Virus record (IMG/VR): IMGVR_UViG_3300037847_007805
Coordinates: 15,410 to 79,409 of that record
Length of the DNA: 64,000 nucleotides
Direction: 5' to 3' (one strand)
Source of the DNA: a virus
Positions 9,576 to 27,600 of the stretch are shown piece by piece. The notes below the pieces were generated by a model. That model was not told the origin of the DNA. It did no database searches and worked only from the letters and a program-made list of their open reading frames with translations. The translations under genes were made by a program, and so were the position numbers. Position 1 is the stretch's first letter; each line of letters begins with the position of its first letter.

Positions 9576-9868
9576 TGGGTTACAGAATTACAGATTATAC
9601 AAAACAACAAGCTAAAAAACTTGGTGTTGAAGTAAAGCCTTCTAAAACGAAAGGTAAAAAAATAGATGTCTTTAAAAAAGGCAAAAAAGTTGCTTCTGTA
9701 GGTGCTATAGGATATAAAGATTTTCCTACTTACTCAAAACTTGAAAAAAAAGGTATATATGAAAAAGGGTATGCTAATAAAAGAAGGAAACTTTACAAAA
9801 TAAGACACAAAAAAGACAGGAATGTTAAAGGTAGTGCAGGTTACTACGCAGATAAATTATTATGGTAA
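9575..9868 (+). CDS. Basic protein, DUF5754-like (recalled similarity)
   Basis: KKIDV...GAIGYKDF...RRKLYKIRH...GYYADKLLW pattern. Confidence 0.5.
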   Translation: MGYRITDYTKQQAKKLGVEVKPSKTKGKKIDVFKKGKKVASVGAIGYKDFPTYSKLEKKGIYEKGYANKRRKLYKIRHKKDRNVKGSAGYYADKLLW

Positions 9869-10964: not shown

Positions 10965-11286
10965 ACCTACAAATCAAACAGCAGAAACTACAGGGGCTGA
11001 AGCAGTAGCCTCTCAAGATACAGCAGGGGCAGTAGATAGTACAAGCCCTTCGCCATCTAATTTTGAAGAAGGTGGTGAATTAAAAGCAGGTGGGGAATAC
11101 TCACTTGTATATTATTTGACATTTGCATTATTACTTTCTGCATCAGCTTATAGTATTTATTATCATAGACAGGCATTAAACAAATTAATGGACGATGATA
11201 ATGATGAACTAAAAAGAGAAGTGCGTGAAGTAAAATCTAATCTTAAAAAATTAATGGGCAACAAGTATGAAATTATCACTAAATAA
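10954..11286 (+). CDS. Membrane protein with an FEEGG motif before the TM helix
   Basis: Low-complexity N-terminus, NFEEGGELKAGG, TM helix, short coil. Confidence 0.6.
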   Translation: MENKPTNQTAETTGAEAVASQDTAGAVDSTSPSPSNFEEGGELKAGGEYSLVYYLTFALLLSASAYSIYYHRQALNKLMDDDNDELKREVREVKSNLKKLMGNKYEIITK

Positions 11287-11917
11287 TATAACATACGGAA
11301 ATCCTAATTCATCTCACAAGAAGGCTTTATCAAAAACCTGTCTTGTGGATTCTTTATTTGAGGAACTAACAAAATTTCCATTTCCTGAAAATGAAAGCGA
11401 TACTACAAAACAAGAACTAAATGAACTTGTAGATTACTTAGAAGATATGGACATTGTAGATAATGAAAAAATTAGAAAAAGATACATTTTCTACGATAGA
11501 AACCTATTTCAAGCAATCATAAATACTTTCAGAACTGATAAAGTAGATATAAAACAACTTATAAACGATATTGATAATGACATAACAGGTTTAATAGTAA
11601 AATTAAAATACTTTTACCAAAGACCAAGACCTTATCAACTTGCCAATTATTACAAACTAAAACTTTTTCCAATAAATACAAAATCGGGACATTCACCGTC
11701 TTATCCAAGCGGACACACTACACAGGCTTATGTAATTTTAACAATTTTAGGAAATCTTGTGCCTGAATACTATCAAAAAACAAAAAAAATGATAGAAGAT
11801 GTTGCGTATAGCAGATGCTATATGGGTGTCCATTATCAAACTGATAATGATTTTGCGTTTCTTGTAGCACAAAAGATTTTAAAACAACCTGAATTTGTTG
11901 AAAAATATGGAATTTGA
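11267..11917 (+). CDS. PAP2/vanadium-haloperoxidase superfamily phosphatase
   Basis: KxxxxRxRP, SYPSGH and SRxxxGVHYxxD motifs. Confidence 0.85.
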   Translation: MKLSLNNITYGNPNSSHKKALSKTCLVDSLFEELTKFPFPENESDTTKQELNELVDYLEDMDIVDNEKIRKRYIFYDRNLFQAIINTFRTDKVDIKQLINDIDNDITGLIVKLKYFYQRPRPYQLANYYKLKLFPINTKSGHSPSYPSGHTTQAYVILTILGNLVPEYYQKTKKMIEDVAYSRCYMGVHYQTDNDFAFLVAQKILKQPEFVEKYGI

Positions 11918-12314: not shown

Positions 12315-12891
12315 CAATAAATCAAAACACGAAGATTTATTTATTGAATTTTCATATTTCACAAGAGATTATGGAACAAATGCTTTATTGCATAATTTAA
12401 AAATTCTAAACGATTCTTCAGGCTACCTTGAAAACCAATCCTCACAAGAAGAAATTTTGACACATGAATTGGGTCTTGCTTTTTCAGAATATGGCATAAA
12501 TTTTATTTCACTTTTTTTTCAAACAAATCGAACTAAAATGCTTAATTTTGAATACAGCGAAAACTCGGCATTAAATGACAAGGTTTTTGAAATTATTTGT
12601 AGGGTTTTTAAAACTACCAAGGATTCAATCTTAGACAAGTTTGATAGAGATGGAGTAAGAGTTTATGCAAGTGGTTCGCTATTTAAATTGTTATTAGATA
12701 CTTGTGGATATAGTGTAAAAGAGGTAATGTTGCTCACAGGAAAGCCAAGAAGCATAATTAGTAGACACAAAAACATAATCAGCAATTTAGACCATAAACA
12801 CATATTTGATAAAAAGATTATCAAAAAATTTATAGAATCTAAAAAACAATTAATTAAATATATTTTAAATGAGTACAAGCAAGAAAACTAA
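12295..12891 (+). CDS. Hypothetical protein with possible C-terminal HTH
   Basis: GYSVKEVMLLTGKPRSIISRH helix-turn-helix-like segment. Confidence 0.45.
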   Translation: MTLLPNSNKSKHEDLFIEFSYFTRDYGTNALLHNLKILNDSSGYLENQSSQEEILTHELGLAFSEYGINFISLFFQTNRTKMLNFEYSENSALNDKVFEIICRVFKTTKDSILDKFDRDGVRVYASGSLFKLLLDTCGYSVKEVMLLTGKPRSIISRHKNIISNLDHKHIFDKKIIKKFIESKKQLIKYILNEYKQEN

Positions 12892-13843
12892 TGACGAAGC
12901 AGAAGAAGTAGAGTTTGAAGAAGTCGGCTCTTTTGATGCTAACCCTGATTTTTCTCCTTTTGACGAACCTGTTAAAGAAAGAGATTATACTAAGCCAAAC
13001 ATAGATGCTTCACAAATTGAAGGTGAATTAGAAGAACCTACATTTGAAGCACCAAGTTTTTCTGATTTTGAAGAAGAAGAAGAACCCAAACCATTTAATC
13101 CAAGTTACAATGAATTAGGTAATAAGGAAAAACAAATGGGTGCGGAAATGATTGCAGACGTTGTAGTAGACGGATATGCTCGTTTGAAAAAAGGTATGGG
13201 TAGCCTTTCCACTATTTCAGAAAATAAATTAGAAAGAGAATTTGCTGAAGGAAATATCAACCCTAATTTACAATTACCTATAGATGAATATGGAAATACT
13301 GCATCTATTAGAGAATTTGTAAAAGAGTTTAATGAAACAAGTAAAGAAGCGTTTGATACTCCTCAAGATTTTAAAGAAAAAGTAAAGCCACCTCTTATTA
13401 GAGTATTCAAAAAAAGAGGTGTAGGAATGACTGATGAACAGTTATTACTTTACTATTTTGGAACTGACTTTGCTACAGCAGGTATTACCGCATTTGGTCT
13501 TAAAAAATCAGCAGATGGGATTTTGAAACAATTAAGAGAACAAACTGATTTAATGCGTTCTCCCGCAAGTCCACCACCCCCACCTTCTAATCAATCATCA
13601 ACAGATGTTTCGGAAAGTGAAAGTGAGTTTGAAGAACCTGAAGAAGTTTTTGAGGTACAGCCCGATATAGTAGCACCAAAGAAACAGTCGAACTCAAACT
13701 TTAGTTCAGAGCAAGAAGTTCCTGAAAATATGCCTTCTTTTGGCGACCCTGCTATTTTGAAGGAGATTGATAAGATTGCTTCACAAGAGAACTTAGATTC
13801 AAAACCCAAACGAAAAAGGGGTAGACCTAAAAAGAAAAAATAG
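12869..13843 (+). CDS. Acidic protein upstream of the packaging ATPase, with a C-terminal AT-hook-like motif
   Basis: Acidic termini, hydrophobic LLLYYFGTDFATAGITAFGL, terminal KRKRGRPKKKK. Confidence 0.6.
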   Translation: MSTSKKTNDEAEEVEFEEVGSFDANPDFSPFDEPVKERDYTKPNIDASQIEGELEEPTFEAPSFSDFEEEEEPKPFNPSYNELGNKEKQMGAEMIADVVVDGYARLKKGMGSLSTISENKLEREFAEGNINPNLQLPIDEYGNTASIREFVKEFNETSKEAFDTPQDFKEKVKPPLIRVFKKRGVGMTDEQLLLYYFGTDFATAGITAFGLKKSADGILKQLREQTDLMRSPASPPPPPSNQSSTDVSESESEFEEPEEVFEVQPDIVAPKKQSNSNFSSEQEVPENMPSFGDPAILKEIDKIASQENLDSKPKRKRGRPKKKK

Positions 13844-13997
13844 GCATTATGTTTACCAAGGAAACAAATACATTAACTAACCTGTTTTTACGGGGAATTA
13901 GTTTAACAACTCCGTGTGTTACTTATACATACATAACTTTAGATAATCAAACATTTGTTTGTATAGATGAAAAATACACGATAAAATATCATACAAT

Positions 13998-14810
13998 ATG
14001 AGAGAGCCAAAATTAGGAGTAGCTGTAGGGAAAAAAGGTGTAGGGAAAACTTACACTACTGATAAGGTAATACAAAGCTATGTTCAAGGTAACCCGAGCA
14101 AAGGTGTAAAACCAAGACGAGCATTAATACTTGATGTAAATGATGAATTTGAACATATAAAAGCCTTACGAGTAAAAGACGTTATGAAGTTTTCTGTCCA
14201 CCCTACCGTAGAAGCAAGAAGAATACGACCATTTATGGAAGATGGTCAAAAAATGACCATAAGAGAAATTCAAGAAACTTTATTTGAAATCTTAAGACAC
14301 TATAGAGGCGGTTTACTTTTGATAGAGGATATAAACAGATATATTTCAGACCAACTACCAAATGACGTTGTGGGTGCTATATGTACAAACAGACACTCTG
14401 ACACAGATATAATTCTTCATTTTCAATCTATTGGAAGGGTAACTACAAAAATTTGGCAGAACCTAAATTGGTTAAGATTTCATAAAAACACCGATTCTGT
14501 AGATAGACACAAACACAAATTTGAAGATAAATTTGAATATCTTAAAATAGCAGAAATTTTAGTAAACCATAAATACTATAATGGCGATGAAAGATATTTT
14601 TTATATGTAGATGTTGATAGTGAGAAGATATTAGGAAACGTATCAAAAAAAGATTTAGATTTTGCTATCGAGGAATACATTTCTAAGTATTATAAAAAAA
14701 TTGTTACTCCACTTTTAAATCAAGTTGGCATGGACGGAAAAAAGAAATATACACCCGAATCAGCCATCAAAGAGATTAAATCCAAGATTTACAAGAATTT
14801 TAGTAAATAA
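13998..14810 (+). CDS. A32/FtsK-HerA-type genome packaging ATPase
   Basis: Walker A GKKGVGKT, Walker B LLLIED, Arg finger NRH and sensor ILHFQS; 270 aa with no nuclease domain. Confidence 0.8.
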   Translation: MREPKLGVAVGKKGVGKTYTTDKVIQSYVQGNPSKGVKPRRALILDVNDEFEHIKALRVKDVMKFSVHPTVEARRIRPFMEDGQKMTIREIQETLFEILRHYRGGLLLIEDINRYISDQLPNDVVGAICTNRHSDTDIILHFQSIGRVTTKIWQNLNWLRFHKNTDSVDRHKHKFEDKFEYLKIAEILVNHKYYNGDERYFLYVDVDSEKILGNVSKKDLDFAIEEYISKYYKKIVTPLLNQVGMDGKKKYTPESAIKEIKSKIYKNFSK

Positions 14811-14876
14811 ATGCAATTATCCTTTTTATTTGCAGATAATTTTATTTATTAAAATAAAAATTATTATAAAAGACAA

Positions 14877-14884
14877 TATATTTG
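14877..14884 (+). promoter_or_regulatory. Bacteroidota-type -7 promoter element upstream of the capsid operon
   Basis: Intergenic TATATTTG. Confidence 0.6.
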
Positions 14885-14947
14885 AAGCGTAGATAGTTCT
14901 GTAACTGTTTACGCTAATTTATTTATTAACTTTTATATCATTCTGTA

Positions 14948-15076
14948 ATGAATACCAAAGTGCTTATGGAGTTTGGTAAGTCCGTTTTAACTGTCGTTGT
15001 AGGAGTAGCTGTATATAATGCAGTAAAACCTATGCTCGATAAGGCAAAATTGTCTGCACCAAGTTCTGACGAATAG
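14948..15076 (+). CDS. 42-aa membrane protein immediately upstream of the capsid candidate (not in ORF track)
   Basis: MNTKVLMEFGKSVLTVVVGVAVYNAVKPMLDKAKLSAPSSDE. Confidence 0.65.
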   Translation: MNTKVLMEFGKSVLTVVVGVAVYNAVKPMLDKAKLSAPSSDE

Positions 15077-15127
15077 TCAAACGAAATTTTAAAAATTATT
15101 TATTAACCTTATTTTAAATTATTTATC

Positions 15128-15820
15128 ATGTCAAATGTACGCAGATATTTAGCAAATGCACAGAGAATGGCAAACGAATCTTTCTCTAATGCAGATGGTT
15201 TCATTGATGATGATTTGTCTTTCACAGGCGAAGATTTTTTCAGTGCTAATGGAGTAGGCGGTGGTTCAGCACCAACTTCTCAACCATATATTGTTACTGT
15301 AACTTCTACATCAGGAAGTGCTGTATCAAACTTTAAGGTGCTTGGTTCTTACGAGTATCTTAACAATTCAGGTTTCACCGCAGGTGGCGACCTTGTAATT
15401 GGTTCAATCACTATTTCAAGTGGAATTTCAGGTATCACATACCGTGAAATGTTGTACCAATTTATGAACAATCCGTATAGTGTAGGACTTACTTATGTAC
15501 AGTCAGCTACAGCTAATCAGATTTTGGAAACTATTTCTGTTAATACAAGAGATGCTAACGGTAATGAAGCACAAAAAACACTTGTGCCAACAATCGACCC
15601 GTATCAGCAACAATCTACAGTATTAGCTATGAAATATGCTTACCGAATTGATGGTTTCACAAAACTAATCATTCGTCAGATTTTAGCTAACGCTACTGTT
15701 AAATTGTACTTCTACCCATCTGACAACATTAACCTTGCAAGAGGTCTTGCAGGACAAAATGTTTCTCGTCAGTACGGAAACCCAGGCATTGTAAAAGCAC
15801 AAACTATCAAATTAACATAA
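15128..15820 (+). CDS. Candidate major capsid protein, probably single jelly-roll
   Basis: Beta-rich and soluble; follows the packaging ATPase; flanked by a promoter element and a strong terminator; frequent TTC/AAC/CGT codons suggest high expression. Confidence 0.6.
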   Translation: MSNVRRYLANAQRMANESFSNADGFIDDDLSFTGEDFFSANGVGGGSAPTSQPYIVTVTSTSGSAVSNFKVLGSYEYLNNSGFTAGGDLVIGSITISSGISGITYREMLYQFMNNPYSVGLTYVQSATANQILETISVNTRDANGNEAQKTLVPTIDPYQQQSTVLAMKYAYRIDGFTKLIIRQILANATVKLYFYPSDNINLARGLAGQNVSRQYGNPGIVKAQTIKLT

Positions 15821-15860
15821 TTAGATAGTTAATGCTTAACAATAGTATTGGATAATTAAC

Positions 15861-15896
15861 AAGGGGCGGATTGATTTATTCAACTTGCCCCTTTTT
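15861..15896 (+). terminator. Intrinsic terminator after the capsid candidate
   Basis: AAGGGGC...GCCCCTT stem running into a T tract. Confidence 0.8.
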
Positions 15897-15910
15897 AAAA
15901 TTTAAAAACT

Positions 15911-16276
15911 ATGGACGTATATAATTATGTAGCAGGTGCATCACCAATTAAAGCACAGGGTATTATAAACAGCTTTGGATATAAAGTCGTAGATAAAAAC
16001 GATATGGGTGGAAACCTTAAGTCGCTTGTGGCAAAAGAGGGAGAACCCGCACTTAAAATGATATTAGAATCACACCCTGATAAAGATGTGATTTTAGAAC
16101 TTTACGGAACTTCTGAAGGGGAGTGTAAAACCTGTAGAGATTCACAAATTATAGAAAAATTTTTAAACGCAAGTGGTAAAGAGCAAAGCGAGGCTAAAAA
16201 AAGTGATAATAACTTTTCATTAGTTTTCCTTGCAGGTATTTTGGCATTATCATTTGCAATCATTTCAAAAAAATAA
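15911..16276 (+). CDS. Virion membrane protein with C-terminal anchor and FLNASG motif
   Basis: Helical N-domain; FSLVFLAGILALSFAIISKK. Confidence 0.65.
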   Translation: MDVYNYVAGASPIKAQGIINSFGYKVVDKNDMGGNLKSLVAKEGEPALKMILESHPDKDVILELYGTSEGECKTCRDSQIIEKFLNASGKEQSEAKKSDNNFSLVFLAGILALSFAIISKK

Positions 16277-16279
16277 AAA

Positions 16280-16951
16280 ATGGCTCGATTTAACAAATTA
16301 GGACAAGCTATTGGTATTGCCATTTCAAAAGATGAGCAGGGAATAAGAAATTTGCTTCAAAGAAACGGTGTATCAACAGCTAACATAAAAACTAAAAACC
16401 AACTTGCAGATGTTTTTGTAGAATCACTTGTCGCATCTAAAGGTTTGGCTCAAGATTTTTCAAACTATGTAAAATCTAAAGATAATGTAAACTTCATGTA
16501 TAATAATGCAGGTGGAATGTATAACAACATGACATTAGAAATGTCATCTTTTGCAAGTGTTGTTGGTGATGGAGTGCCTGATGCTTATAATATGACGGGA
16601 GATGAATCAAATACTAACATTTGGTCGCCTTCAGGAACAAGCACTTCAGTAAATGCTGATGGCGAAAATGAAGAAGAAAAGAAAAAAGGTGGATTTTTTG
16701 AAGGAATAACCTTAAAAGAAATACTTAATCAAGCTAAAGATATTTACTTAGCTGATAAAAATGATTCAATCGCAAGACAAGAAACAGAACAAATAAAGAC
16801 AATAGCTAACACGCAAATCAATAACGATAATTTTTCACCTAACAGAACTTCTCCTGAAAAAAAATCAAACACAGGACTATATATTTTCCTTGGTGTTTTA
16901 GGATTAGCAGTCGTTGGTGGGGTTATTTATTTCGTATCAAAAAAGAAATAA
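16280..16951 (+). CDS. Virion membrane protein with C-terminal anchor and YNNAGG motif
   Basis: DEQGIRNLLQRNG domain shared with neighbours; LGVLGLAVVGGVIYFVSKKK. Confidence 0.7.
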   Translation: MARFNKLGQAIGIAISKDEQGIRNLLQRNGVSTANIKTKNQLADVFVESLVASKGLAQDFSNYVKSKDNVNFMYNNAGGMYNNMTLEMSSFASVVGDGVPDAYNMTGDESNTNIWSPSGTSTSVNADGENEEEKKKGGFFEGITLKEILNQAKDIYLADKNDSIARQETEQIKTIANTQINNDNFSPNRTSPEKKSNTGLYIFLGVLGLAVVGGVIYFVSKKK

Positions 16952-16952
16952 T

Positions 16953-17552
16953 ATGGCAACACAAGACCAATTACGTCAATTAGGAAATGCTGTAGGATTT
17001 TTGTCAGTAGCTGATATTCAAGGGCTTTCTAACCTTTTAGCTAAATATGGCAATATGCCTGATAACATTTCTTATCAAAGTTTGAATAAAGCAACAATAG
17101 AATCTTTATCAAACCGAAATTTTTACCAAGAATTTTTAAGATTAGTTTCTGCTAATGTAAAAGAGGTTGCTCAAATTAACCAATTCAGCAATGTAGCAGG
17201 TGATACGGTTGCAACTACCCCTGCAACCACTCCCGCTTCAACGGGTTCAGGCTTTTTTTCAGGGTTTAACTTAAACACTCTAATCGGTCTTGGAACTACT
17301 ATTTACGCAACTGAATCAGCAGGAAAACAACAAGACAGGCTGTTAAATGCTCAAGCTAATCAACAAGCACAGCAAAACCAAGATACGATTATGGCAGGTC
17401 AATTAGCTTTAGAAACCGAAAAATTAAAACTTGCTCAAATTCAGGCGGGTGGTGGACAAGGCGGTGCTAACAACACTATGCTATATGTAGGATTAGGTAT
17501 ATTAGGATTACTTGTAGTTGGTGGAGTTATTTACGCAGTAGCTAAAAAATAA
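16953..17552 (+). CDS. Paralog of 16280 protein with FSNVAG motif
   Basis: LGNAVG...DIQGLSNLLAKYG; GILGLLVVGGVIYAVAKK; start moved to ATG 16953. Confidence 0.7.
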   Translation: MATQDQLRQLGNAVGFLSVADIQGLSNLLAKYGNMPDNISYQSLNKATIESLSNRNFYQEFLRLVSANVKEVAQINQFSNVAGDTVATTPATTPASTGSGFFSGFNLNTLIGLGTTIYATESAGKQQDRLLNAQANQQAQQNQDTIMAGQLALETEKLKLAQIQAGGGQGGANNTMLYVGLGILGLLVVGGVIYAVAKK

Positions 17553-17555
17553 TAT

Positions 17556-17783
17556 ATGAAAAGTCCAAAAGAGATAGTTGAAGATGTTTCTTCAATGACC
17601 GATGAAAAGAAAAGAAAAGCATTTATGGTAAAAGCACAGTCAAGTGTGCATGGTGCTTTTTGGGGTGGTGCTTTTGGTCTTATGTTCGCTTTTTATAAAG
17701 GCAAAAATAAATATACAAGTGCCTTATTAGGTGCGGGTATTGGTGCGTTAGTGTCGAACCTTTTAACCGTTGAAAAAAAATAA
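17556..17783 (+). CDS. Glycine-zipper two-TM membrane protein
   Basis: GAFWGGAFG and LLGAGIGALV. Confidence 0.65.
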   Translation: MKSPKEIVEDVSSMTDEKKRKAFMVKAQSSVHGAFWGGAFGLMFAFYKGKNKYTSALLGAGIGALVSNLLTVEKK

Positions 17784-17787
17784 AATT

Positions 17788-18060
17788 ATGATAAATCCCG
17801 AAAGAAAGTATACGTTTGGCGACCCCAAGAATAAAAGTCAATTTTTTATAGATAATAATGTGACAATTTTACCTGTTAGGGGTGATAGAATGACAAAAGA
17901 GGAACAAAAAGCTAAAATAGAAGAAGAAAAAATAAAATTACAGGCAAGTCAAGATGAAAAGAAAATAAAGGAAAAAATCAAAAGAAATAAAAATGTTCTT
18001 ATATATGTGGCTGTAGCAGTAGCAGGTTTCTTTGCTTATAAAAAATTATTTAAAAAATAA
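17788..18060 (+). CDS. Small protein with C-terminal anchor
   Basis: VLIYVAVAVAGFFAYKKLFKK. Confidence 0.65.
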   Translation: MINPERKYTFGDPKNKSQFFIDNNVTILPVRGDRMTKEEQKAKIEEEKIKLQASQDEKKIKEKIKRNKNVLIYVAVAVAGFFAYKKLFKK

Positions 18061-18403
18061 AGTTATGAGAAAAATGAGTAAGGAAGCACAATTAGAACGC
18101 TTAAGAAAAAAATTAGCAGAATTTGAGGCTATCATGCAAAAAGGCGGTAAAGTTCAAGGTACTGTTGATAGTTTAAGAAAACAAATTGCTGTTTTAGAAC
18201 AAGCAACTTCAAAAAGCGACAAAAACATTGACTTAAGCAATTTAAAACCTGTCGGTGGTTCTGACACAGAAAAAGAAGTTTTTGAAATGCAAAGACAAGA
18301 ATTTGAAAAGGAAAAAAAGAAAGAAAAAAATAAAAAAATTCTTTTATACGTTGCCCTTGCAGTAGCAGGTTTCTTTGCTTATAAAAAATTATTTAAAAAA
18401 TAA
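18016..18403 (+). repeat. Identical 45-bp direct repeat (18016-18060 and 18359-18403) encoding the membrane-anchor end of two genes
   Basis: gcagtagcaggtttctttgcttataaaaaattatttaaaaaataa occurs twice. Confidence 0.9.
18065..18403 (+). CDS. Coiled-coil protein with C-terminal anchor
   Basis: ILLYVALAVAGFFAYKKLFKK. Confidence 0.65.
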   Translation: MRKMSKEAQLERLRKKLAEFEAIMQKGGKVQGTVDSLRKQIAVLEQATSKSDKNIDLSNLKPVGGSDTEKEVFEMQRQEFEKEKKKEKNKKILLYVALAVAGFFAYKKLFKK

Positions 18404-18829
18404 ATGATGCATCATTCAGATTACATGGAAGATTTTAACAATGCTATGGGTGGAAATTATAATTTCGGACTACATGGTTTTAAGCCTTCAAAAGGTAGTT
18501 TACTAAATACTTCTGTATTGGATAAAAAATTACGAGGAATTAGTGATAGTAGTGAATTGAAATCTGATGTCCAACCATCTGAAGAAGAATTACAAATGCA
18601 AGAAAAATATATGCAAGAGTTGATAGATGCAAATAAAAAATATCGTGCTACTTTAATTGGTGGTAGGATAGGAAGTTCTTTGGGCTTCATTGTAGCTTTA
18701 GGCTACGCTTTTAAAGTAAAGTCAGGATTTTGGAAAGGTTGGGGTTATACAATCTTGGGAAGCATGGCTTTAGGTGGATTAGGGGCAGGAGTAGGTTTTG
18801 CTATTGATTCATCAAAGAAGAATAATTAA
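18404..18829 (+). CDS. Two-TM glycine-rich membrane protein with FNNAMG motif
   Basis: GGRIGSSLG...KSGFWKGWGY...GGLGAGVG. Confidence 0.65.
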   Translation: MMHHSDYMEDFNNAMGGNYNFGLHGFKPSKGSLLNTSVLDKKLRGISDSSELKSDVQPSEEELQMQEKYMQELIDANKKYRATLIGGRIGSSLGFIVALGYAFKVKSGFWKGWGYTILGSMALGGLGAGVGFAIDSSKKNN

Positions 18830-18857
18830 TATATGTTAAACTTTAAATTTTAAAACT

Positions 18858-18977
18858 ATGAAATTAGATGTTAAATCTTTAGTAGGAGTAGCAGTATCAG
18901 TTGCTGTACTTTATGTAACCGTATATTACGGTGGACAAGCGTGGAAGCGTTCTCAAGAAGGTGAGAAACTATTATAA
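18858..18977 (+). CDS. 39-aa membrane protein (not in ORF track)
   Basis: MKLDVKSLVGVAVSVAVLYVTVYYGGQAWKRSQEGEKLL. Confidence 0.6.
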   Translation: MKLDVKSLVGVAVSVAVLYVTVYYGGQAWKRSQEGEKLL

Positions 18978-18980
18978 TAA

Positions 18981-19082
18981 ATGAAACAAAGAACTTTAAT
19001 AGGATTTTTTTTAGTTGTTGCAGGGATTGGGGGTCTATCTTATGTTTACAATCGTTACATAAAGGACGATTCTCAATCGTAG
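18981..19082 (+). CDS. 33-aa membrane protein (not in ORF track)
   Basis: MKQRTLIGFFLVVAGIGGLSYVYNRYIKDDSQS. Confidence 0.55.
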   Translation: MKQRTLIGFFLVVAGIGGLSYVYNRYIKDDSQS

Positions 19083-19097
19083 CAATGTTATTATAAT

Positions 19098-19361
19098 ATG
19101 GAAAAGTCAGCAAATCAATTATGGAGAGAAAGCGGTACTTCATTATCTTTTAAAGATTGGATTCAAAGAGAGAAAGATAAAGGTGTACAAATAAAAAACA
19201 AACTCCTTGAAAATGTTGTCGATTCGTTTAAAGAAACTGACGAACAAGACACAATAGATACAACAAGGTTTGCCTTTGGAATACCAAAATGGGTAGTTTA
19301 TACAGGTGTTTCAATTTTAACCTTTGCTGTTGTATATAAACTTTACAAAGCCAAAAAATGA
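19098..19361 (+). CDS. Small protein with C-terminal anchor
   Basis: GIPKWVVYTGVSILTFAVVYKLYKAKK. Confidence 0.65.
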   Translation: MEKSANQLWRESGTSLSFKDWIQREKDKGVQIKNKLLENVVDSFKETDEQDTIDTTRFAFGIPKWVVYTGVSILTFAVVYKLYKAKK

Positions 19362-20146
19362 ATTTAAGGATTAATACCCGATATGAAGAACTATCCTTGG
19401 CTATATATGTACAAACACTTGCACCCTGCAAAATCAGGATAAAAGTTTTTGATGCAGAACAGCCTAAAACTGTTTTTACCGACAGGTATAAAACCGTAAA
19501 AGGAAAAGAGGTTTTTTATGTCAGAATGCCCTTAACTTCAAGCAAGGTAATTGTAAGCATATACAACGAAGCTGTTGGAAATAAAAGGAAAGGCGAAGAT
19601 AGTAGCTTTATTGTTACAGAGGTCAAAAAACTTCCGTTGCAAAAAAGAACAGATGTTGGCGATATAAAAGATTATACCGTTTCAGCTTTTGTAGATTTTG
19701 CACAAAGGTTTTCATTTAATGCCTCGTATTTAGACGACAATAAAACTTATCAGAGCCAAAGCGGAGAGTTTTTGATAGAGTATTTACCAAATATAGTTAG
19801 TTCAAAAACAGGGAAAAAAATGAAAACCCCTGCTCGAATTTCCAAAGTAAATGGTAGAATACAAGTATCAAAAGAAGCGTTTGACACATATACTGTACCT
19901 ATGCGTATGGCTATATTGTTACACGAATTTTCCCACTTTTATTTAAATGATAATATGGACGATGAGGTTGAAGCTGACCTTAATGGTCTTTTAATCTATT
20001 TAGGCTTGGGCTATCCAAGGATAGAAGGTTATCAGGCTTTTTTAGAGGTGTTTCAAGAAAGTCCATCACAACAGAACAGAAACCGTTATGATATTATAAA
20101 TAAATTCATAAGGGATTTTGAGAATAATAAAATGGTAATGAATTAA
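19358..20146 (+). CDS. Zincin metalloprotease (HExxH); candidate maturation protease
   Basis: ILLHEFSHF followed by DEVEAD third-ligand motif; located in the structural block. Confidence 0.7.
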   Translation: MNLRINTRYEELSLAIYVQTLAPCKIRIKVFDAEQPKTVFTDRYKTVKGKEVFYVRMPLTSSKVIVSIYNEAVGNKRKGEDSSFIVTEVKKLPLQKRTDVGDIKDYTVSAFVDFAQRFSFNASYLDDNKTYQSQSGEFLIEYLPNIVSSKTGKKMKTPARISKVNGRIQVSKEAFDTYTVPMRMAILLHEFSHFYLNDNMDDEVEADLNGLLIYLGLGYPRIEGYQAFLEVFQESPSQQNRNRYDIINKFIRDFENNKMVMN

Positions 20147-20157
20147 AAAAATTAAAC

Positions 20158-20295
20158 ATGGCAAAGAAAATGAACGCATATATGAAAGCACTACAAAAAG
20201 CAAGAAAAAGCGGTGCAAGTAGTTTTAAGTACAATGGCAAAACATACAAGAAAGCTAAGACCAAAACAGGTATGGTAATTTATAAAGCAAGATAA
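20158..20295 (+). CDS. 45-aa basic protein (not in ORF track), possible DNA-condensing core protein
   Basis: MAKKMNAYMKALQKARKSGASSFKYNGKTYKKAKTKTGMVIYKAR. Confidence 0.6.
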   Translation: MAKKMNAYMKALQKARKSGASSFKYNGKTYKKAKTKTGMVIYKAR

Positions 20296-20296
20296 A

Positions 20297-20554
20297 ATGA
20301 AAAATAGTACAATTATAACCTTGTTAGCAGGTTTAAGCCTTTTCTTGTTGTTTGAAAAATATGGTAAAAAGAAAAAAGGTTGCGGTTGCAAAGGAAAAGA
20401 GGACAGTCAAGTCGAACCTTCGGATTCTGATGATGTTGATTGTCAAGAAGCAGTCGATATGATTATGGCAGAAAGAATGAAAACAATGAAAATGTCCCAA
20501 GAGGCTTTTGCAAAAATGAGAGAAGAAGAATTAGAAAAATGTAAAAACTCATAA
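20297..20554 (+). CDS. Membrane protein with N-terminal anchor
   Basis: TM helix then KKKKGCGC. Confidence 0.6.
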   Translation: MKNSTIITLLAGLSLFLLFEKYGKKKKGCGCKGKEDSQVEPSDSDDVDCQEAVDMIMAERMKTMKMSQEAFAKMREEELEKCKNS

Positions 20555-20557
20555 ATT

Positions 20558-20998
20558 ATGTCTTTACAGTCAGTTAAAATCTTGCCAACAAAAAACAGTT
20601 CCGACCAAGAATGGCTATCGTGGTACTTAGATTTAAAAAACCTTATAGGTACTAAAAAAGCTAACAGAATTTTTACAATGCTTTGGAATAATGAAGATGG
20701 GTATAATTCTGATGCAAACTCCGTGTATTTACGAGATGAAATGGAAGGTTACGGAGTAGAGATAGCAGGTGGAGTTATTGGTGATGTAGCTGATTTCTTT
20801 TCTACTGCTAAAGGTTACTTTGGTGGATTTTTTACAGCAGGAAAATGGATTGGTATTGTATTGGCAGGTGTGGTTGTTGTTTCTGTAGGTGGATTACTAT
20901 TACAGATAGCTTTCAAACCATCAGTAAGACAAGAAGCTGTAAAAATTGGCACAGCAATAGGTACAAGAGGAATGTCTGAACTCCCCGCAAAAAAATAA
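20558..20998 (+). CDS. Membrane protein
   Basis: WIGIVLAGVVVVSVGGLLLQI TM helix. Confidence 0.6.
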   Translation: MSLQSVKILPTKNSSDQEWLSWYLDLKNLIGTKKANRIFTMLWNNEDGYNSDANSVYLRDEMEGYGVEIAGGVIGDVADFFSTAKGYFGGFFTAGKWIGIVLAGVVVVSVGGLLLQIAFKPSVRQEAVKIGTAIGTRGMSELPAKK

Positions 20999-21004
20999 TT
21001 AAGA

Positions 21005-21484
21005 ATGACGAGGCAACAAAAAATAATAGTTTATGCAAGTGTAAGTGCTTTAAGCATTGGCTATCTGTCTTATAAAGCTATTAGAAGAAATCAAATTTAT
21101 AACGAATTGATTGGTGTAATAGAAAAAACAGGTGGTGGATATAATAAGAGTAAAAATGAAAGTGCATTAAAAGGTACTCTACACCCCATAATAGAAAGTC
21201 AAAACTATGATAAGGGTATAATTATTTTACAACCTGATGAAGTAAAAAACAGAGCAGAAGCATTATTTAGTGCTATAGATGGGGCAGGAACAGATGAAGA
21301 AAAAATTGCTTCTGTTATTACGATGTTCAATGATAAATTTGCTTTATCACAGGTTGCATCTTTTTATAGAGCAAAATATAATGAAACTCTTTATGATGCA
21401 CTAAAGGGAGATTTGAATAATAGCGATTTTGAGTATTATGTAACGGAAAACATGGCAAAATTGCCTGAAGTAAGATTTGTTTAA
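21005..21484 (+). CDS. Membrane-anchored single annexin-repeat protein
   Basis: AEALFSAIDGAGTDEEKI...Y...Y.ETL.DALKGDL matches the annexin GxGTDE repeat. Confidence 0.75.
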   Translation: MTRQQKIIVYASVSALSIGYLSYKAIRRNQIYNELIGVIEKTGGGYNKSKNESALKGTLHPIIESQNYDKGIIILQPDEVKNRAEALFSAIDGAGTDEEKIASVITMFNDKFALSQVASFYRAKYNETLYDALKGDLNNSDFEYYVTENMAKLPEVRFV

Positions 21485-21494
21485 AAAAAAAGCT

Positions 21495-22007
21495 ATGAAT
21501 AAAAACACAAAAACACTTTTATATGTATTAGGCGGAGTAGTAGTTTCCGTAGTAGGAGTATTTGCTTATACGCTTTTAAAAAACAGAAAATCTGCTAATA
21601 TAACAGATTTGAATATAGACGAAGTAATAAAAGAAGAAAGCCAAAATACAGGAACGCAAAATAATGAAGTAGCGGATAATGAAGCTATATTGGGACAAGC
21701 TATTCCTTCAAGAGAAAGTTTCCCATTACAAATTGGTATGTATGGAAAAAATGTTCATGTAATGCAACAAGCCTTAAAAGAATTAGGAAATTATAGTGGA
21801 AAAATAGATGGTAAATATGGGGCATTAACAGACGAAGCGTTAGATAAAGGCGGTTCAAGGTATAATGGAAGTATGTGTGGTAATTGGCTCGTAGGGGCTT
21901 GTGAAGTAACAATGTCAGGATTTAACAGATTGATGGCTGATGCAAAAAGAGAAAAAGGGTTTGATAAAGATTTGGCATTGATAGAAGCCCAAAAAATGTA
22001 TTTGTAA
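21495..22007 (+). CDS. Membrane-anchored peptidoglycan-binding domain (PG_binding_1) protein
   Basis: FPLQIGMYGKNV..MQQAL..LG.YSGKIDGKYG.LT..AL. Confidence 0.8.
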   Translation: MNKNTKTLLYVLGGVVVSVVGVFAYTLLKNRKSANITDLNIDEVIKEESQNTGTQNNEVADNEAILGQAIPSRESFPLQIGMYGKNVHVMQQALKELGNYSGKIDGKYGALTDEALDKGGSRYNGSMCGNWLVGACEVTMSGFNRLMADAKREKGFDKDLALIEAQKMYL

Positions 22008-22026
22008 CTTATTTAAATGGTTTTAT

Positions 22027-22431
22027 ATGAGTTACAGTTCATATTTGAAAGGAAAGGCACAAGCAAATCAAGATTTAAGGAATAAATATCTTGCAACAAA
22101 GAGTTGTCCTGATGCCTTAAAAAATAGAGATGAATTACAATTTGTAGTTTCTGACCTTACAAAAAAAGCAATAAATAGTGATTATTGGCGAGGCTATTCT
22201 GATGCACACGCACAAAGGCTCAAAGATGTTTCGGCATATTACAATTTTGGTGATTGCGACAATTATTTTAATCGCTATAAGGTTGATAAGTTGGGCAAAA
22301 TAGTAGATAAAAAAAATACAAAAGCCCAAGAATTAATTAATGCACAAACCAAAAAACAAAATAGGCTTGTCTTATTTGTTGGATTTGCAGTTATGTTAGT
22401 TGGAACAATAATTATTTTAAAAAGAAAATAG
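22027..22431 (+). CDS. Helical protein with C-terminal anchor; paralog of 22434
   Basis: C..D...SDLTKK...C pattern; terminal TM plus KRK. Confidence 0.6.
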   Translation: MSYSSYLKGKAQANQDLRNKYLATKSCPDALKNRDELQFVVSDLTKKAINSDYWRGYSDAHAQRLKDVSAYYNFGDCDNYFNRYKVDKLGKIVDKKNTKAQELINAQTKKQNRLVLFVGFAVMLVGTIIILKRK

Positions 22432-22433
22432 TT

Positions 22434-22868
22434 ATGAAAAAGCTAATAGATAAAATTAAAAATATACAGCAAAATAGGTCAGATGCTGAAAATTCTGCTA
22501 CAAACATTAATAATTTAGGTATAAACAAGACAAACACCTTTACTATTTGTGCAGATTTAGACCAAAAAATTACTCGGTACGATGTGCTTATTGCAGACCT
22601 TACAAAAAAAAATGTAAAGGGTAAATCATACGGAGATTTAATAAAAAAATATAGTTCTGAAAGATTAGAACTACAAAAAAGATTTACACGATTATCGTGT
22701 TTAGAAGAAATAGAATTTCAAAAGTTAGAAGAATCTGCTGACATTTTAGACACGCAGTTTTCTCAAGCTGAAATAGATATTCTTGAGAAATCAAGAAAAG
22801 AACAAAATAAACTGTATTTCATTGGTGCAGGAGTTTTATTATTAGGTGCATATATAATTATTAGATAA
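22434..22868 (+). CDS. Helical protein with C-terminal anchor; paralog of 22027
   Basis: CADL...ADLTKK...C pattern; terminal TM. Confidence 0.6.
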   Translation: MKKLIDKIKNIQQNRSDAENSATNINNLGINKTNTFTICADLDQKITRYDVLIADLTKKNVKGKSYGDLIKKYSSERLELQKRFTRLSCLEEIEFQKLEESADILDTQFSQAEIDILEKSRKEQNKLYFIGAGVLLLGAYIIIR

Positions 22869-23080
22869 TGAAAAGAGAATATAATTATAGGGGTATTTAT
22901 GATAAAGATGAAGTCGGAAGAATAAACGACTTACTTGGTACGCAAAGAGAACTGTTTATAGAAGAAGAAAAAAAACAGCTTCCAACACAACAAAAAGTTC
23001 AAAAATACTTTTTGATTGCGATGGGAGTTTCATTAATTATTGTATTAACTAAAGTTTTATCAAATGGAAAACGCAAATAA
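22868..23080 (+). CDS. Small protein with C-terminal anchor
   Basis: YFLIAMGVSLIIVLTKVL. Confidence 0.6.
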   Translation: MKREYNYRGIYDKDEVGRINDLLGTQRELFIEEEKKQLPTQQKVQKYFLIAMGVSLIIVLTKVLSNGKRK

Positions 23081-23372
23081 CATTTTAAATCCACCTCAAA
23101 ATAATAATTGGGAAGAAAATGACAATTTCGCATCTAATACACTTGCTAAGGGCGAAGGTATCGTAAAAGACATCGTAGATGGTGCTAAAGATACTTTTAA
23201 TCTTGCTGTAGAAGAAGCAAAAACTGTAGCACCTGATGTAGTTGATGTTTTTGAAGAATCATCAGACAGGTTGAATGCAGAGCCAAGAATTATAAAGGCT
23301 GTACCTAACAACTATTTGGTTTATGGAGTTGTATTGTTAGCATCTTATATTATTGTCAAGAAGGTGCTGTAA
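23064..23372 (+). CDS. Small protein with C-terminal anchor
   Basis: YLVYGVVLLASYIIVKKVL. Confidence 0.6.
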   Translation: MENANNILNPPQNNNWEENDNFASNTLAKGEGIVKDIVDGAKDTFNLAVEEAKTVAPDVVDVFEESSDRLNAEPRIIKAVPNNYLVYGVVLLASYIIVKKVL

Positions 23373-23935
23373 TGAGAAAACTGTTTTTTTACGGTGGTAT
23401 TGGTATTATAGGTTACGCTTTTTATTCATATTTTAAAAAGCAATATAACCTTGCGGTAAACTATACCTATCGTTTAAAAGACATCAATGTCCTTGAACTA
23501 ACAAAAGAAAAAGCAACCTTAGATTGTACAGTAGAAATTAAAAATAAATCCTCTTTTCAAGTAGAAATAAGAGGCTGGGATTTAGTTTTTAAATACAAGG
23601 GTGTTGAATTTGCTGACACAAAAAGCAATGAAAGATTTGCAATACCACCTGATTCAGTATTTTCTGTAAGTGCAGTTGGAGATTTAGATTTTACTAATTA
23701 CAAAAGTGTTTTGTACCCCGCAGTTTTAGATATACTGTCAAGAAAACCGATTGACGTTCAAGTTGATGGAAAGCTATTTGTAACTTTCATGGGAATAAAT
23801 AGAACAATTAATTTTAGTGATGAAGAATTTAGATATTCAGATGATATTATTGAAGAAGTTGGTTTAGGTAAAAAATATGATAAAACTTTAGCAAAAATCC
23901 AAGATATATTCGGTAAAATTGGAGTAAAAGTTTAA
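23372..23935 (+). CDS. LEA_2/WHy-domain membrane protein
   Basis: N-terminal TM; VEIKNKSSFQVEI...FKYKGVEF...IPPDS pattern. Confidence 0.65.
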   Translation: MRKLFFYGGIGIIGYAFYSYFKKQYNLAVNYTYRLKDINVLELTKEKATLDCTVEIKNKSSFQVEIRGWDLVFKYKGVEFADTKSNERFAIPPDSVFSVSAVGDLDFTNYKSVLYPAVLDILSRKPIDVQVDGKLFVTFMGINRTINFSDEEFRYSDDIIEEVGLGKKYDKTLAKIQDIFGKIGVKV

Positions 23936-23965
23936 TTTTACAAAATAAGAAACATTTAAAAAGAC

Positions 23966-24361
23966 ATGATACAGCAGATTACGAGTAAAATTATGCTTGG
24001 TGGTATTTGTAAATATGCAAATATATATCAAGATGAAGAAAAAAATGTTCAGATAAGAGTGTCTAAAAATGGAGAAGATTCATTGAATTATGAAATGTGT
24101 CAAAATTGGCAACCAAAAGAATCGGTAACTTTTAAAGACATACTTAATAAAAAAATAGACATTCTTGGTTATGAGCAACTGTCTACTCCTTTTTTGCTTA
24201 AGTCATTAAACTTATATCAAAAAGAGTTTGAGGCAGAAAATGAAACATTGAGCATATTTCTCTTTAACAGAAATGATAAAGTGGGATTAGCTGTTTTTGA
24301 AGATAAGAAAAATTTAAAATTATTAACTCTATCAAAACATTTTGAGCAATTAGGATTATAA
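23966..24361 (+). CDS. Hypothetical protein
   Basis: 131-aa ORF in operon. Confidence 0.6.
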   Translation: MIQQITSKIMLGGICKYANIYQDEEKNVQIRVSKNGEDSLNYEMCQNWQPKESVTFKDILNKKIDILGYEQLSTPFLLKSLNLYQKEFEAENETLSIFLFNRNDKVGLAVFEDKKNLKLLTLSKHFEQLGL

Positions 24362-24640
24362 ATGGCTACTACAAGAAGAAAGACCGTGAGTGTGAGCAAC
24401 GCTGATATTAATTGGATTAAAGACCAATTACTTGAACAGCACACAGTTTTGATGAAACTTAACCAAACTATAATTGGGGATAAAGAGTACGGTCAAAAAG
24501 GTCTTGTCGAGCAAGTAAATGACCATAGAAGGTACATTCTTAAAGACCAAAATCTCAAAGCTAAATTTGTGGGCGGTACAACTGTAGTAGGTGTTGTATG
24601 GACTTTATTGCTCAAGTTTTGGGATAAAATTTTTGCTTAA
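24362..24640 (+). CDS. Coiled-coil protein with C-terminal TM
   Basis: IIGDKEYGQKGLVEQV; terminal hydrophobic helix. Confidence 0.55.
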   Translation: MATTRRKTVSVSNADINWIKDQLLEQHTVLMKLNQTIIGDKEYGQKGLVEQVNDHRRYILKDQNLKAKFVGGTTVVGVVWTLLLKFWDKIFA

Positions 24641-24643
24641 AAT

Positions 24644-27600
24644 ATGAGCATTCAGGTATCTTTAGCCAACGATATTAAAGTCGTTCAGGGCAATGGTTTA
24701 GCTATCTTTTTAGATAGTGATACAAACCTTTTAACCCTGAAAGATACTAATGGGTGTGTTCAAGCCCTCGACAGTTATATATTACAAGAGGGGATTACTG
24801 AAATTATAGCGGGTTGTTGTATAACAGGTGGTGGCACATCTGCAATAGTTACAATTAATCACGCAGACACTTCTTCATTAGATGGCGATTATGGTGCTAC
24901 AGGTTCTCAAAATGGCTGTTACATCAAATCTGTTACAGTTGATGGTCTTGGACATTTAACAGGTGTAACAAGTGCTAATTTTGATACAAGATATTTAGGA
25001 ATTTGTGCTTGTGCTTGTGATTCAGCTTCGTTAAACGCTTTAGACCCTGATTACTATTTAAACTTTTGTAATTTTTTCAATGTCCCACCATTAGGAGATA
25101 TAACTGATGTTGTTGCAGGAGATGGTTTAGGCGGTGGTGGTTGTTGTGGTTGTATTACTTTATGTAACACAGATAAAGGTTCAGACCAAGCAATTATAAA
25201 AAGAATTGCAGATAATTCTTCAACAGTATTTACAGCTTCCACCAATAATGATTTGTTTTGTATTGTTGGAACAGGGGCTATAAGCACATCTATAAGTGGA
25301 GATACTTTAACAATATCTTCTTCAACTGTTGCTAATAATTGTCAAATTGAGGTTTCGGCAGGTACAGGTTTAAGTGGTGGTGGCTGTTTTAACTTAAATC
25401 AAAGTTCTAATTGTACACTTACTATTAATAACTGCGATAGAGGTTCACAGCAAAATATATTTAAAAACATTGCTGTATCAGGACAAAATACAATTATTGC
25501 AGGTTCAAATACAGCCACATTAACTTTAGTTGAGGGTGCTAACATTGATATTACTACTTGTACTACTGATGGTTCGGTAACAATAAGCAGTACACAGTCA
25601 GCCCCAAATAATTGTCAAATACAAATTACAGGCGGAGATGGGCTTGGGGGAAGTGCAACCTTTACTTTAAATCAAGCAACAAATGGTAGTTTCTCACTTT
25701 GTAATACAGACAAAGGTTCTGACCAATGCTTTTTTCAAAACATTGCGGTTGTTGGTTCATGCACGATAACAGCAGACAGTAATGCCGACACCGTTTGTTT
25801 ATCAGCAGGAACAGGAATTACTCTAACCTCTGACAGTTCTCAAGATTTAATTACGATAGGTACTACAGCTACAGGCTGTACAGGAACAGTAACCGAAGTA
25901 TGTGTACAAAGTGGCACAACAGGTTCTGATTTTAATGTTTCGGGTAGCCCGATTACAACTTCAGGAACAATTACTTTAAACTTGCCCATAGCAAGTGCGA
26001 CCAAAACAGGTAAATTATCATGCACAGATTGGGCAACATTTAATAGTAAAACGTCATGCACAGGAACAGTAACAAGCGTAGGGTTCTGCACAGCAGAAGG
26101 GGGAACAGATGTCAATGTATCAGGAAGTCCGATAACGTCAAGCGGGGACATAACATTGAACATACCGATTGCAAGTGCAACAAAAACAGGTAAATTATCA
26201 TCAACTGATTGGAGTGATTTTGATGCAAAAGTAGATGATGTAACAGCAGGTTCAGGTATTGCGGTAAGTGGAACTGATACTATTGAAGTAACAAATACTG
26301 ACAAAGGTTCAGACCAATGTATATTTAAAACATTTGCAGTTTCAGGACAAAATGATATTGTAGCTGATTCAAATAGCGACACGCTTACTTTTGCAGGTTC
26401 AGGTATTGCAATTACAACTGATGATGCTACAGACACCATTACATTCACCGTTACTGATGCAGGTGGTACGGTTACAGAGATTTGTGGTGCAGTAGGAACA
26501 ACGGGAACAGATTTTAATGTTTCAGGAAGTCCAATCACGACAAGTGGAACTCTAACCTTTAACCTTCCTGATGCGAGTGCAACCTCAAGAGGTGCATTAA
26601 CAAGTACAGATTGGAGTACATTTAATTCTAAAACAACTTGCACGGGTACAGTAACAAGTGTCCAAATTGGTGGGGGAGAAGGAATTGTAGCCACAGGAAC
26701 TAATCCTGTTACAACAAGTGGTACTATAAATCTTGCAGTTTGCCTTAATGAATTAACAACAACAACAGATAATGATTGCGGTTGTTATTTTGCTGTAGTA
26801 GATTCTTCAGGTGTACAAAGTAAACTTTGTAAATCAAACATAAATAATTCAGGATTCAACAATGATGCGGGATATACAACCTGTACAGGAACTGTATCGA
26901 GTGTAGGATTGTCAGCAGGAACAGGAATATCTGTTTCAGGAAGCCCCGTTACGGGAAGCGGAACTATGACGGTTACAAATACTGACCGTGGTTCTTCTCA
27001 ATGCATTTTTAAATGTGTGGCTGTTTCAGGACAAACAACAATAGAAGCTGATAGCAATGCCGATACATTAACCTTTGCAGAGGGAACGGGTATTACTATA
27101 ACAACTGATGATTCAACAGATACTATTACGATTTCAAATGAAGGTGCAGACGGAACAGTTACTTGTATAAATTTTGCTACAGATGAATCGGGTACTAATG
27201 TAGGGGTGTCAGGTGTTCCGATTACAACAAGCGGAACAATAACTTTATCTATACCTGAAGCAAGTGCTACTTCTACAGGTAAACTTACTGCAACTGATTG
27301 GAGTACATTCAACTCTAAAACCACTTGTACGGGTACTGTAACAAGTGTTGGTCTTACAACGGGAACAACAGGGACAGATGTAAATGTTTCAGGAAGCCCC
27401 GTTACAGGAAGTGGTAATATAACTTTAAATATACCTACTGCAAGTGCTACAAAGAGAGGTGCATTATCCTCTACTGATTGGAGTACATTTAACTCCAAAA
27501 CTACTTGTACAGGTACAGTAACAAGCGTGGGTCTTGCTACTGATGAAACGGGAACAGACGTAGCTGTATCGGGAAGCCCTGTAACGGGAAGTGGAGATAT

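Follow-up and report, generated by a model that had tools for sequence, protein, structure and literature searches.

Architecture of the locus

The DNA considered here is a window of 64,000 nucleotides, corresponding to bases 15410–79409 of a single virus record of 79,409 bp (IMG/VR record IMGVR_UViG_3300037847_007805), and positions given below refer to this window. Its G+C content is about 30%, and its genes lie on the plus strand up to 41.5 kb and on the minus strand thereafter. Within the plus-strand part, a small ATPase gene is followed by a gene for a short membrane peptide, by a gene for a beta-rich protein of 230 residues, and then by a long run of small genes mostly encoding membrane-anchored proteins. 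This region is probably the morphogenesis module of a large double-stranded DNA bacterial virus, built on the tailless internal-membrane plan of the Varidnaviria type represented by PRD1, PM2, STIV and the sphaerolipoviruses. The features on which this reading is built are the following.

13998..14810, plus strand: FtsK-HerA-type ATPase, 270 residues, candidate genome-packaging motor (motifs, predicted fold)
14948..15076, plus strand: single-pass membrane peptide, 42 residues, hydrophobic segment at residues 5–23, between the ATPase and the coat candidate
15128..15820, plus strand: jelly-roll-type protein, 230 residues, candidate major capsid protein (predicted fold, conservation)
15911..24640, plus strand: about 22 small genes in an array, of which about 18 encode a membrane segment, mainly as a C-terminal anchor (open reading frames, hydrophobicity)
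39150..39692, plus strand: distant paralogue of the 230-residue protein, 180 residues (hhalign probability 95.5%, E 1.5e-8, 82 columns)

That the particle has a membrane and no tail, and that the 230-residue protein is its coat, are proposals that genes and models support and do not prove. The support comes from the ATPase fold, the gene order, the coat candidate, the enrichment in membrane-protein genes, a PAP2-family gene just upstream, and the failure of hallmark profiles of tailed phages to match. A first-pass annotation of the same letters had already described a 42-residue membrane peptide after the ATPase, which is found at 14948–15076, and had proposed a virus of more than 64 kb. The size holds, since the record measures 79.4 kb and syntenic relatives reach 132–135 kb. 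If it follows the tailless plan, the virus would exceed the bacterial viruses so far described with that plan several-fold in size.

The candidate packaging ATPase

The ATPase encoded at 13998–14810 displays all the features ascribed to it beforehand, namely a Walker A motif (GKKGVGKT), a Walker B motif (LLLIED), NRH at residues 131–133 and HFQ at residues 141–143. It has no further domain, and in particular no nuclease domain. Across 39 homologues, residues R132, H133 and Q143 never vary and N131 hardly does; the ATPase as a whole shows 52–66% identity in the relatives. When the protein is aligned with P9 of PRD1, Walker A and N131-R132...Q143 coincide. An hhalign comparison of a shallow ATPase profile with PRD1 P9 was also tried and set aside, as it aligned the Walker A stretch alone with a probability of 7%.

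The AlphaFold (AF2) model of the enzyme has a predicted local distance difference test (pLDDT) score of 85. Its best PDB match according to VIA is B204 of STIV2 (Z 14.7, root-mean-square deviation 3.1, 184 of 204 residues), followed by DndH-C (14.2), HerA (12.9), VirB4 (12.3), TrwB (10.0) and FtsK (9.5). In Foldseek, the top 15 matches are all B204 (E 4.6e-8), and the N-domain of Zot comes next at rank 16 (E 2e-4). The enzyme is closest to B204 and not to VirB4/TraG or Zot proteins, the groupings against which the first-pass annotation had wished to see it checked, but the margin that is wide in Foldseek is narrow in VIA. The placement rests mainly on Foldseek and on a match spanning nearly the whole of the small B204 chain. 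No terminase stands among the listed best structural matches, the Zot profile gives no match on the ATPase, and no membrane segment is predicted in it. A tblastn search with the ATPase and the 230-residue protein against 50,697 phage records found no match, and a profile search of PDB sequences with both families returned chance-level matches only.

Only three open reading frames (ORFs) in the 79 kb carry a Walker A motif, those of this ATPase, of an APS kinase and of a MoxR AAA+ protein, and the ATPase and the MoxR-type AAA+ are the only P-loop proteins of the core set (genes common to five genomes). Judged by its fold matches and motifs, the protein is a minimal FtsK-HerA enzyme of the packaging type found in tailless internal-membrane viruses, with genome packaging as its candidate role. 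In known viruses, small B204/A32-type ATPases accompany jelly-roll icosahedral capsids.

Since VirB4, TrwK and TrwB are found among the structural matches (Z 10–12.3), a plasmid-like or conjugative element has to be considered, in which the ATPase would be the DNA translocase of a transfer apparatus made of the small membrane proteins. The record also encodes a polyvalent protein of 1244 residues with ART and RelA/SpoT domains, and such proteins occur in phages and conjugative elements alike. We give this explanation very little credit. The minimal B204 is matched best, over 184 of its 204 residues, by a protein with no predicted membrane segment; Pfam and PHROG scans turned up no relaxase or coupling-protein family; and the gene set is phage-like, with an amidase bearing a peptidoglycan-binding domain, Phage_lysozyme2, Peptidase_M23, RecT, RusA and a Phg_2220_C protein. 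Many relatives are, moreover, filed in IMG/VR as virus records.

The candidate coat protein and its paralogues

The AF2 model of the 230-residue protein (pLDDT 87.7, above 94 in the core) consists of a short N-terminal helix, a low-confidence linker (residues ~18–41) that nevertheless holds invariant residues, and an all-beta sandwich. Viral coats are found among its fold matches, including those of picorna-/comovirus, grapevine fanleaf virus, FLiP, phiCjT23 and PM2 (P1), and also those of PBCV-1, EhV and faustovirus; the 124-residue chain O of PR772 is matched with a Z score of 5.8. Carbohydrate-binding modules, TNF/C1q, nucleoplasmin and phage cement proteins are matched as well. The beta-rich, jelly-roll character expected by the first-pass annotation is thus recovered in the model, but the coat Z scores are only 5–6 and carbohydrate-binding modules score equally. 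As modelled, the fold class looks right for a coat protein and is not diagnostic of one.

Sequence searches detected no similarity of this protein to any known coat family. Its own family is large (1916 homologues, in 664 clusters at 50% identity) and without annotation. With 73–79% identity, it is the best conserved of the 28 core genes.

Three copies of the protein are predicted to bind to one another, with a self-association score of 0.84 compared with 0.07 for the best control. Of 30 solved pairs of one chain 20 attained this mark, and of 23 single chains only 1. The partner pLDDT is at least 68 and the contact agreement between runs at least 24%. Confidence is high for only two of the three possible interfaces, which join a face formed by residues 52–54, 78–83 and 98–114 to a face formed by residues 74–76, 141–146 and 176–177, both including invariant residues of the family. 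In the three-copy model the chain runs head to tail and stays open, which is what a real ring of more than three members would give.

RNA libraries give a hint that the gene is well expressed. In run X16 a contig covers 15160–15844 with a word depth of 143, the other pieces of the 10-kb stretch lying at 3–17, and in run X18 a contig covers 15386–15868 at a depth of 14.6 versus 2.7–9.8, although such contig depths cannot rank genes and DNA may be present in such libraries.

The 180-residue paralogue is itself a core gene (35–43% identity) and, by analogy, is a candidate for the vertex (penton) protein. Some relatives have intact tandem two-domain versions of the coat-candidate domain, 397–411 residues long (proteins P0128 and P0174); a search with P0174 in viral contigs gave no match. 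In one relative of 102 kb (G003, L068:10001-11194), the tandem protein is additional to a single-domain gene located 40 kb away.

The membrane-protein array and the vertex candidates

The first-pass annotation had counted about 25 consecutive small genes, mostly membrane-anchored. The count comes down to about 22, and the membrane character is retained: under a lenient rule a hydrophobic segment is present in 18 of the ~22 ORFs of the array, at the extreme C-terminus in 13 of them. The same rule finds a segment in 14 of the 45 ORFs of the minus-strand module, with a single C-terminal one. Under a strict rule, 14 of the 27 ORFs of the region have a segment. The array keeps this character in five relatives (17–21 of 19–24 ORFs with a segment), although its sequences diverge fast. 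Several members and neighbours of the array can be described further, together with a gene near the 180-residue paralogue.

19358..20146, plus strand: soluble core protein within the array, 262 residues, with an HExxH motif (LLHEFSH), candidate zinc peptidase (sequence)
21005-21484, plus strand: annexin-like protein in the array
21477-22007, plus strand: PG_binding_1 protein in the array
23372-23935, plus strand: LEA_2 protein in the array
24644..35962, plus strand: giant protein, 3772 residues, directly after the array (ORF)
40074..41549, plus strand: Ser/Thr-rich core protein, 491 residues, near the 180-residue paralogue (sequence; 30–36% identity)

The HExxH protein shows 59–61% identity in all relatives, and neither it nor the 491-residue protein matches any family in Pfam, PHROG or NCBIfam; an NCBIfam search with ten key proteins likewise returned nothing. 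The 3772-residue protein has no Pfam match. It lacks conservation in four relatives, which would suit a part that recognises the host, and it is probably a variable fibre or adhesin. The 491-residue protein is a spike candidate. It lies, like a core gene for a 114-residue protein, near the 180-residue paralogue, and by analogy these three products (180, 114 and 491 residues) may be vertex proteins comparable to P31, P5 and P2 of PRD1.

A short motif, [FY]-x-N-[AVLF]-x-G, occurs six times in the proteome, compared with 2.1 expected from shuffles (window 15128-18829 and 37698-38249). Five of the six copies lie in five consecutive genes, in the leader of the coat candidate and in four membrane proteins. 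It may be a processing or docking signal. The gene of the HExxH protein is located near the genes with this motif.

Comparison with known tailless viruses

B204 of STIV/STIV2 (Turriviridae) is, like the ATPase described here, a minimal single-domain protein with no nuclease. The two share 15–18% identity and differ by ~55 extra C-terminal helical residues in the present enzyme; the host of B204 is archaeal, whereas the host here is bacterial. P9 of PRD1 has Walker A and N-R...Q in common with the ATPase. The gene order is also shared with PRD1, as the succession of ATPase, small membrane peptide, coat candidate and small membrane proteins matches that of P9, gpi/P20, P3 and P22. The 42-residue peptide occupies the position of gpi/P20, and the gene of the 230-residue protein stands in the exact position of the PRD1 coat gene. 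A small jelly-roll paralogue is present, as is the penton protein P31 in PRD1. The PRD1 coat protein P3, of 395 residues, is a double jelly roll, whereas the candidate here is a single sandwich of 230 residues, and the PRD1 genome measures 15 kb compared with 72–135 kb in the present lineage.

The sphaerolipovirus-type viruses (P23-77, SH1 and HHIV-2; Helvetiavirae) have a pair of single jelly-roll coat proteins of ~170–290 residues, an adjacent A32-type ATPase and an internal membrane. The pair formed by the 230- and 180-residue proteins recalls this coat pair, but the two paralogues are 23 kb apart whereas the sphaerolipovirus-type coat genes are adjacent; these viruses infect Thermus and haloarchaea and have genomes of 17–31 kb. 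Their coats are absent from the 50 best fold matches of the 230-residue protein, but this does not speak against a relationship. Another tailless virus with a membrane, Salisaeta icosahedral phage 1 (SSIP-1), combines a rather large genome (43.8 kb) with a giant structural protein of 2319 residues, gp43. The SSIP-1 genome, a circular molecule, reaches at most half the size of those considered here, and hhalign comparisons of the coat and ATPase profiles with all the larger SSIP-1 proteins yielded nothing beyond the Walker A stretch. In a 2018 metagenomic census, the prokaryotic double jelly-roll viruses had genomes of ~7–18 kb (PMC5894146).

These comparisons also bear on the possibility that the particle has an undescribed architecture, enveloped, pleomorphic or otherwise non-icosahedral, in which the 230-residue protein would be a matrix, nucleocapsid or spike subunit. 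Such an architecture would suit the very high load of membrane proteins, the unspecific coat fold match and a protein without detectable similarity to known coat families, and an open head-to-tail chain fits filaments or lattices as well as rings. It looks rather unlikely, given the company that small B204/A32-type ATPases keep in known viruses, the PRD1-like gene order, and the existence of another, smaller paralogue of the kind that a vertex protein would be.

Search for tailed-phage genes and weight of the evidence

The tailless, internal-membrane plan agrees with the outcome of several searches for tailed-phage hallmarks. No Pfam family of terminases, portals or capsids matches any ORF of at least 280 residues, the ORFs scanned singly against PHROGs gave no terminase, portal or capsid, and none of these appeared among the 25 best families in Pfam or PHROG in a scan of 80 ORFs. 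The profiles Terminase_6N, TerL_ATPase, Phage_capsid and Phage_portal, for which the controls did give matches, have no match in this record and four relatives rated complete (72–102 kb). The statement of the first-pass annotation that it recognised no terminase, portal or HK97 gene in the window can thus be extended, at the level of profiles, to the whole 79.4-kb record and to these relatives. The ends of a 132-kb relative yielded no hallmark gene either (Pfam, ten largest ORFs); a homing endonuclease and an exonuclease are encoded there beside small ORFs, and no structural gene was recognised. There is no P-loop protein of terminase size in the genome.

A tailed phage would have to possess a terminase, a portal and an HK97 capsid too divergent for profiles, the ATPase then acting in segregation or defence and the 230-residue protein being a decoration, cement or fibre-tip protein. 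Jelly-roll sandwiches similar to the latter do exist in the cement proteins of Pam1 and KHP40 and in tail chains of Pa223 and Kp7 (Z 4.9–5.6). We hold this explanation to be improbable, because four hallmark profiles fail in five complete genomes, the core P-loop proteins are limited to the 270-residue ATPase and the MoxR AAA+, the ATPase has a B204/HerA-type fold, and a decoration protein is not normally the most conserved gene of a lineage.

Several observations weigh against the tailless internal-membrane reading, and some of them are also points in favour of a tailed phage. The latter include a weak match of the ATPase to a PHROG labelled terminase large subunit (E 9e-7), the automatic taxonomy, which labels related clusters Uroviricota, and core proteins of 515 (DUF7192-like), 491, 268 and 1371 residues with no assigned fold, which bears on the absence of tailed-phage hallmarks as judged by profiles. 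For the ATPase, B204 leads DndH-C by less than one Z unit in VIA, the Pox_A32 profile has no match in five genomes at E values up to 10, DUF87 stays below threshold on an orthologue and the AAA_22 match is weak. Sequence profiles thus fail to place the enzyme, whose proposed placement relies on fold and motifs. For the coat candidate, the best Z score (6.3) belongs to the carbohydrate-binding module of AlgX, viral coats following at 5–6, below the level that the search tool calls specific. To our knowledge, a single jelly-roll coat on a genome this large is without precedent. The record is rated complete by CheckV, yet its right end falls within an ORF, so that a small amount of sequence is possibly missing. 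Lastly, the virus is known here from its sequence.

Genes and signals around the module

The features next to the ATPase and the coat candidate complete the picture of the locus.

9575..9868, plus strand: very basic core protein, 97 residues, K/R-rich, second best conserved core gene
11267..11917, plus strand: PAP2-family lipid phosphatase, core gene just 5' of the module (Pfam PAP2, E 1.8e-12)
12869..13843, plus strand: acidic low-complexity core protein, 324 residues, with a basic C-terminal tail (KPKRKRGRPKKKK) (sequence)
14877..14915, plus strand: Bacteroidota-type -7 box TATATTTG (14877-14884) and, after it, a hairpin, both within the 137 bp that precede the gene of the 42-residue peptide
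15861..15897, plus strand: intrinsic terminator after the coat candidate (hairpin of -18.7 kcal/mol, z -5.75, then U5)

The stretch described in the first-pass annotation starts at 12869, where the 324-residue acidic protein, and not the ATPase, begins. This protein is conserved in 53 loci and in all relatives (41–51% identity), matches no family in Pfam, PHROG or NCBIfam, and is a candidate scaffold or packaging accessory. The PAP2 gene was found in 52 related loci, and none of the four complete relatives lacks it; its product may take part in virion lipid supply. The 97-residue basic protein (61–69% identity in four relatives, with a weak, sub-threshold DUF5754 match) is a candidate DNA-condensing or core protein. 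A second very basic small protein, of 45 residues, is encoded at window 20158-20295, and both may condense DNA.

A promoter element and a terminator had both been attributed to the gene of the 230-residue protein. The terminator is there; the promoter element is located 5' of the gene of the 42-residue peptide and not directly before 15128. With 98 occurrences in the window for 115 expected, TATATTTG shows no enrichment and is therefore weak promoter evidence, and an RNA-library contig that starts nearby, at 14889, adds a weak hint. A sigma-70 promoter scan found 46 sites for 49 expected, which is not above chance.

Two further core genes encode the MoxR/CobS-like AAA+ protein (L001:14093-15451; AAA_5, E 1e-12) and, after it, the 515-residue protein (window 42-1589), which has relatives carrying DUF7192; they may be a chaperone pair for assembly. 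Core genes for the APS kinase and a GT9-like glycosyltransferase are located at 36051-37375, and sulfotransferase families match somewhere in the genome. Together with PAP2, these matches suggest glycan and lipid modification.

No terminal repeats were found in this record, and neither a protein-primed polymerase nor a terminal protein was detected. A relative of 72.5 kb (G005) has perfect inverted terminal repeats of 123 bp containing a Bacteroidota-type promoter, and the promoter-like sequence of these ends sits 295 bp inside the left end here (bases 295–344). The inverted ends may be true linear ends or an assembly break.

Relatives, host and habitat

The same gene order is kept in relatives of 72–135 kb. 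Those in IMG/VR reach 100–102 kb, and contigs bearing homologues reach 135 kb. A contig of 132,486 bp from a Sediminibacterium metagenome-assembled genome (MAG) is syntenic over ~100 kb with a uniform G+C content of 32%, and represents the complete or almost complete genome of another member of the lineage. Near-identical DNA is found in marine metagenomes of several separate studies. Judged from these sequences and from the 1916 coat homologues in 664 clusters, the lineage is common.

The host probably belongs to the Bacteroidota, in view of the DUF3127 domains (two such proteins are matched in the record) and CarboxypepD_reg-type domains, the -7 box and one MAG bin. DUF3127 and CarboxypepD_reg-type domains are typical of Bacteroidota. 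Other relatives have been binned with Pelagibacter, Planktophila and Bathyarchaeia, and because these taxa are unrelated, the binning is unreliable. A full-text literature search found no description of the lineage; other journals may hold one.

Proposed assembly and implications

In the assembly pathway that can be proposed for a tailless virus with an internal membrane, the small proteins of the array would insert in the host membrane, and capsomers of the 230-residue protein would enclose a patch of it, helped by the 324-residue acidic protein as a scaffold. The 180-residue paralogue and the 491-residue protein would form the vertices. The ATPase would dock at one of them and pump the genome in, perhaps through the 42-residue peptide, a docking modelled on that of PRD1 P9 through P20/P22. 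During entry, penetration of the wall may involve membrane proteins, for instance the one that binds peptidoglycan.

A broader proposal is more tentative and, in our estimate, possible rather than probable: the genomes would represent a widespread, undescribed bacterial virus lineage of high rank, in which the plan combining a tailless membrane virion, a jelly-roll coat and an A32-type ATPase has been scaled to 72–135 kb, with a single jelly-roll coat family that is unrelated in sequence to the known ones. The prokaryotic viruses so far known to combine a jelly-roll coat with an A32-type ATPase are small, and the largest membrane-containing tailless phage compared here, SSIP-1, has 43.8 kb. 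A lineage of 72–135 kb would show that this body plan is not confined to small genomes in bacteria, and under the broader proposal it would be a bacterial counterpart to the way genomes have grown among the large eukaryotic viruses in that realm. Automatic tools would also be filing a common aquatic virus group among the tailed phages. The tandem two-domain paralogues would then show a fresh transition from single to double jelly roll, and the lineage would offer a bacterial system for studying how a membrane is captured, how a genome is packaged through a membrane vertex and how jelly rolls duplicate.

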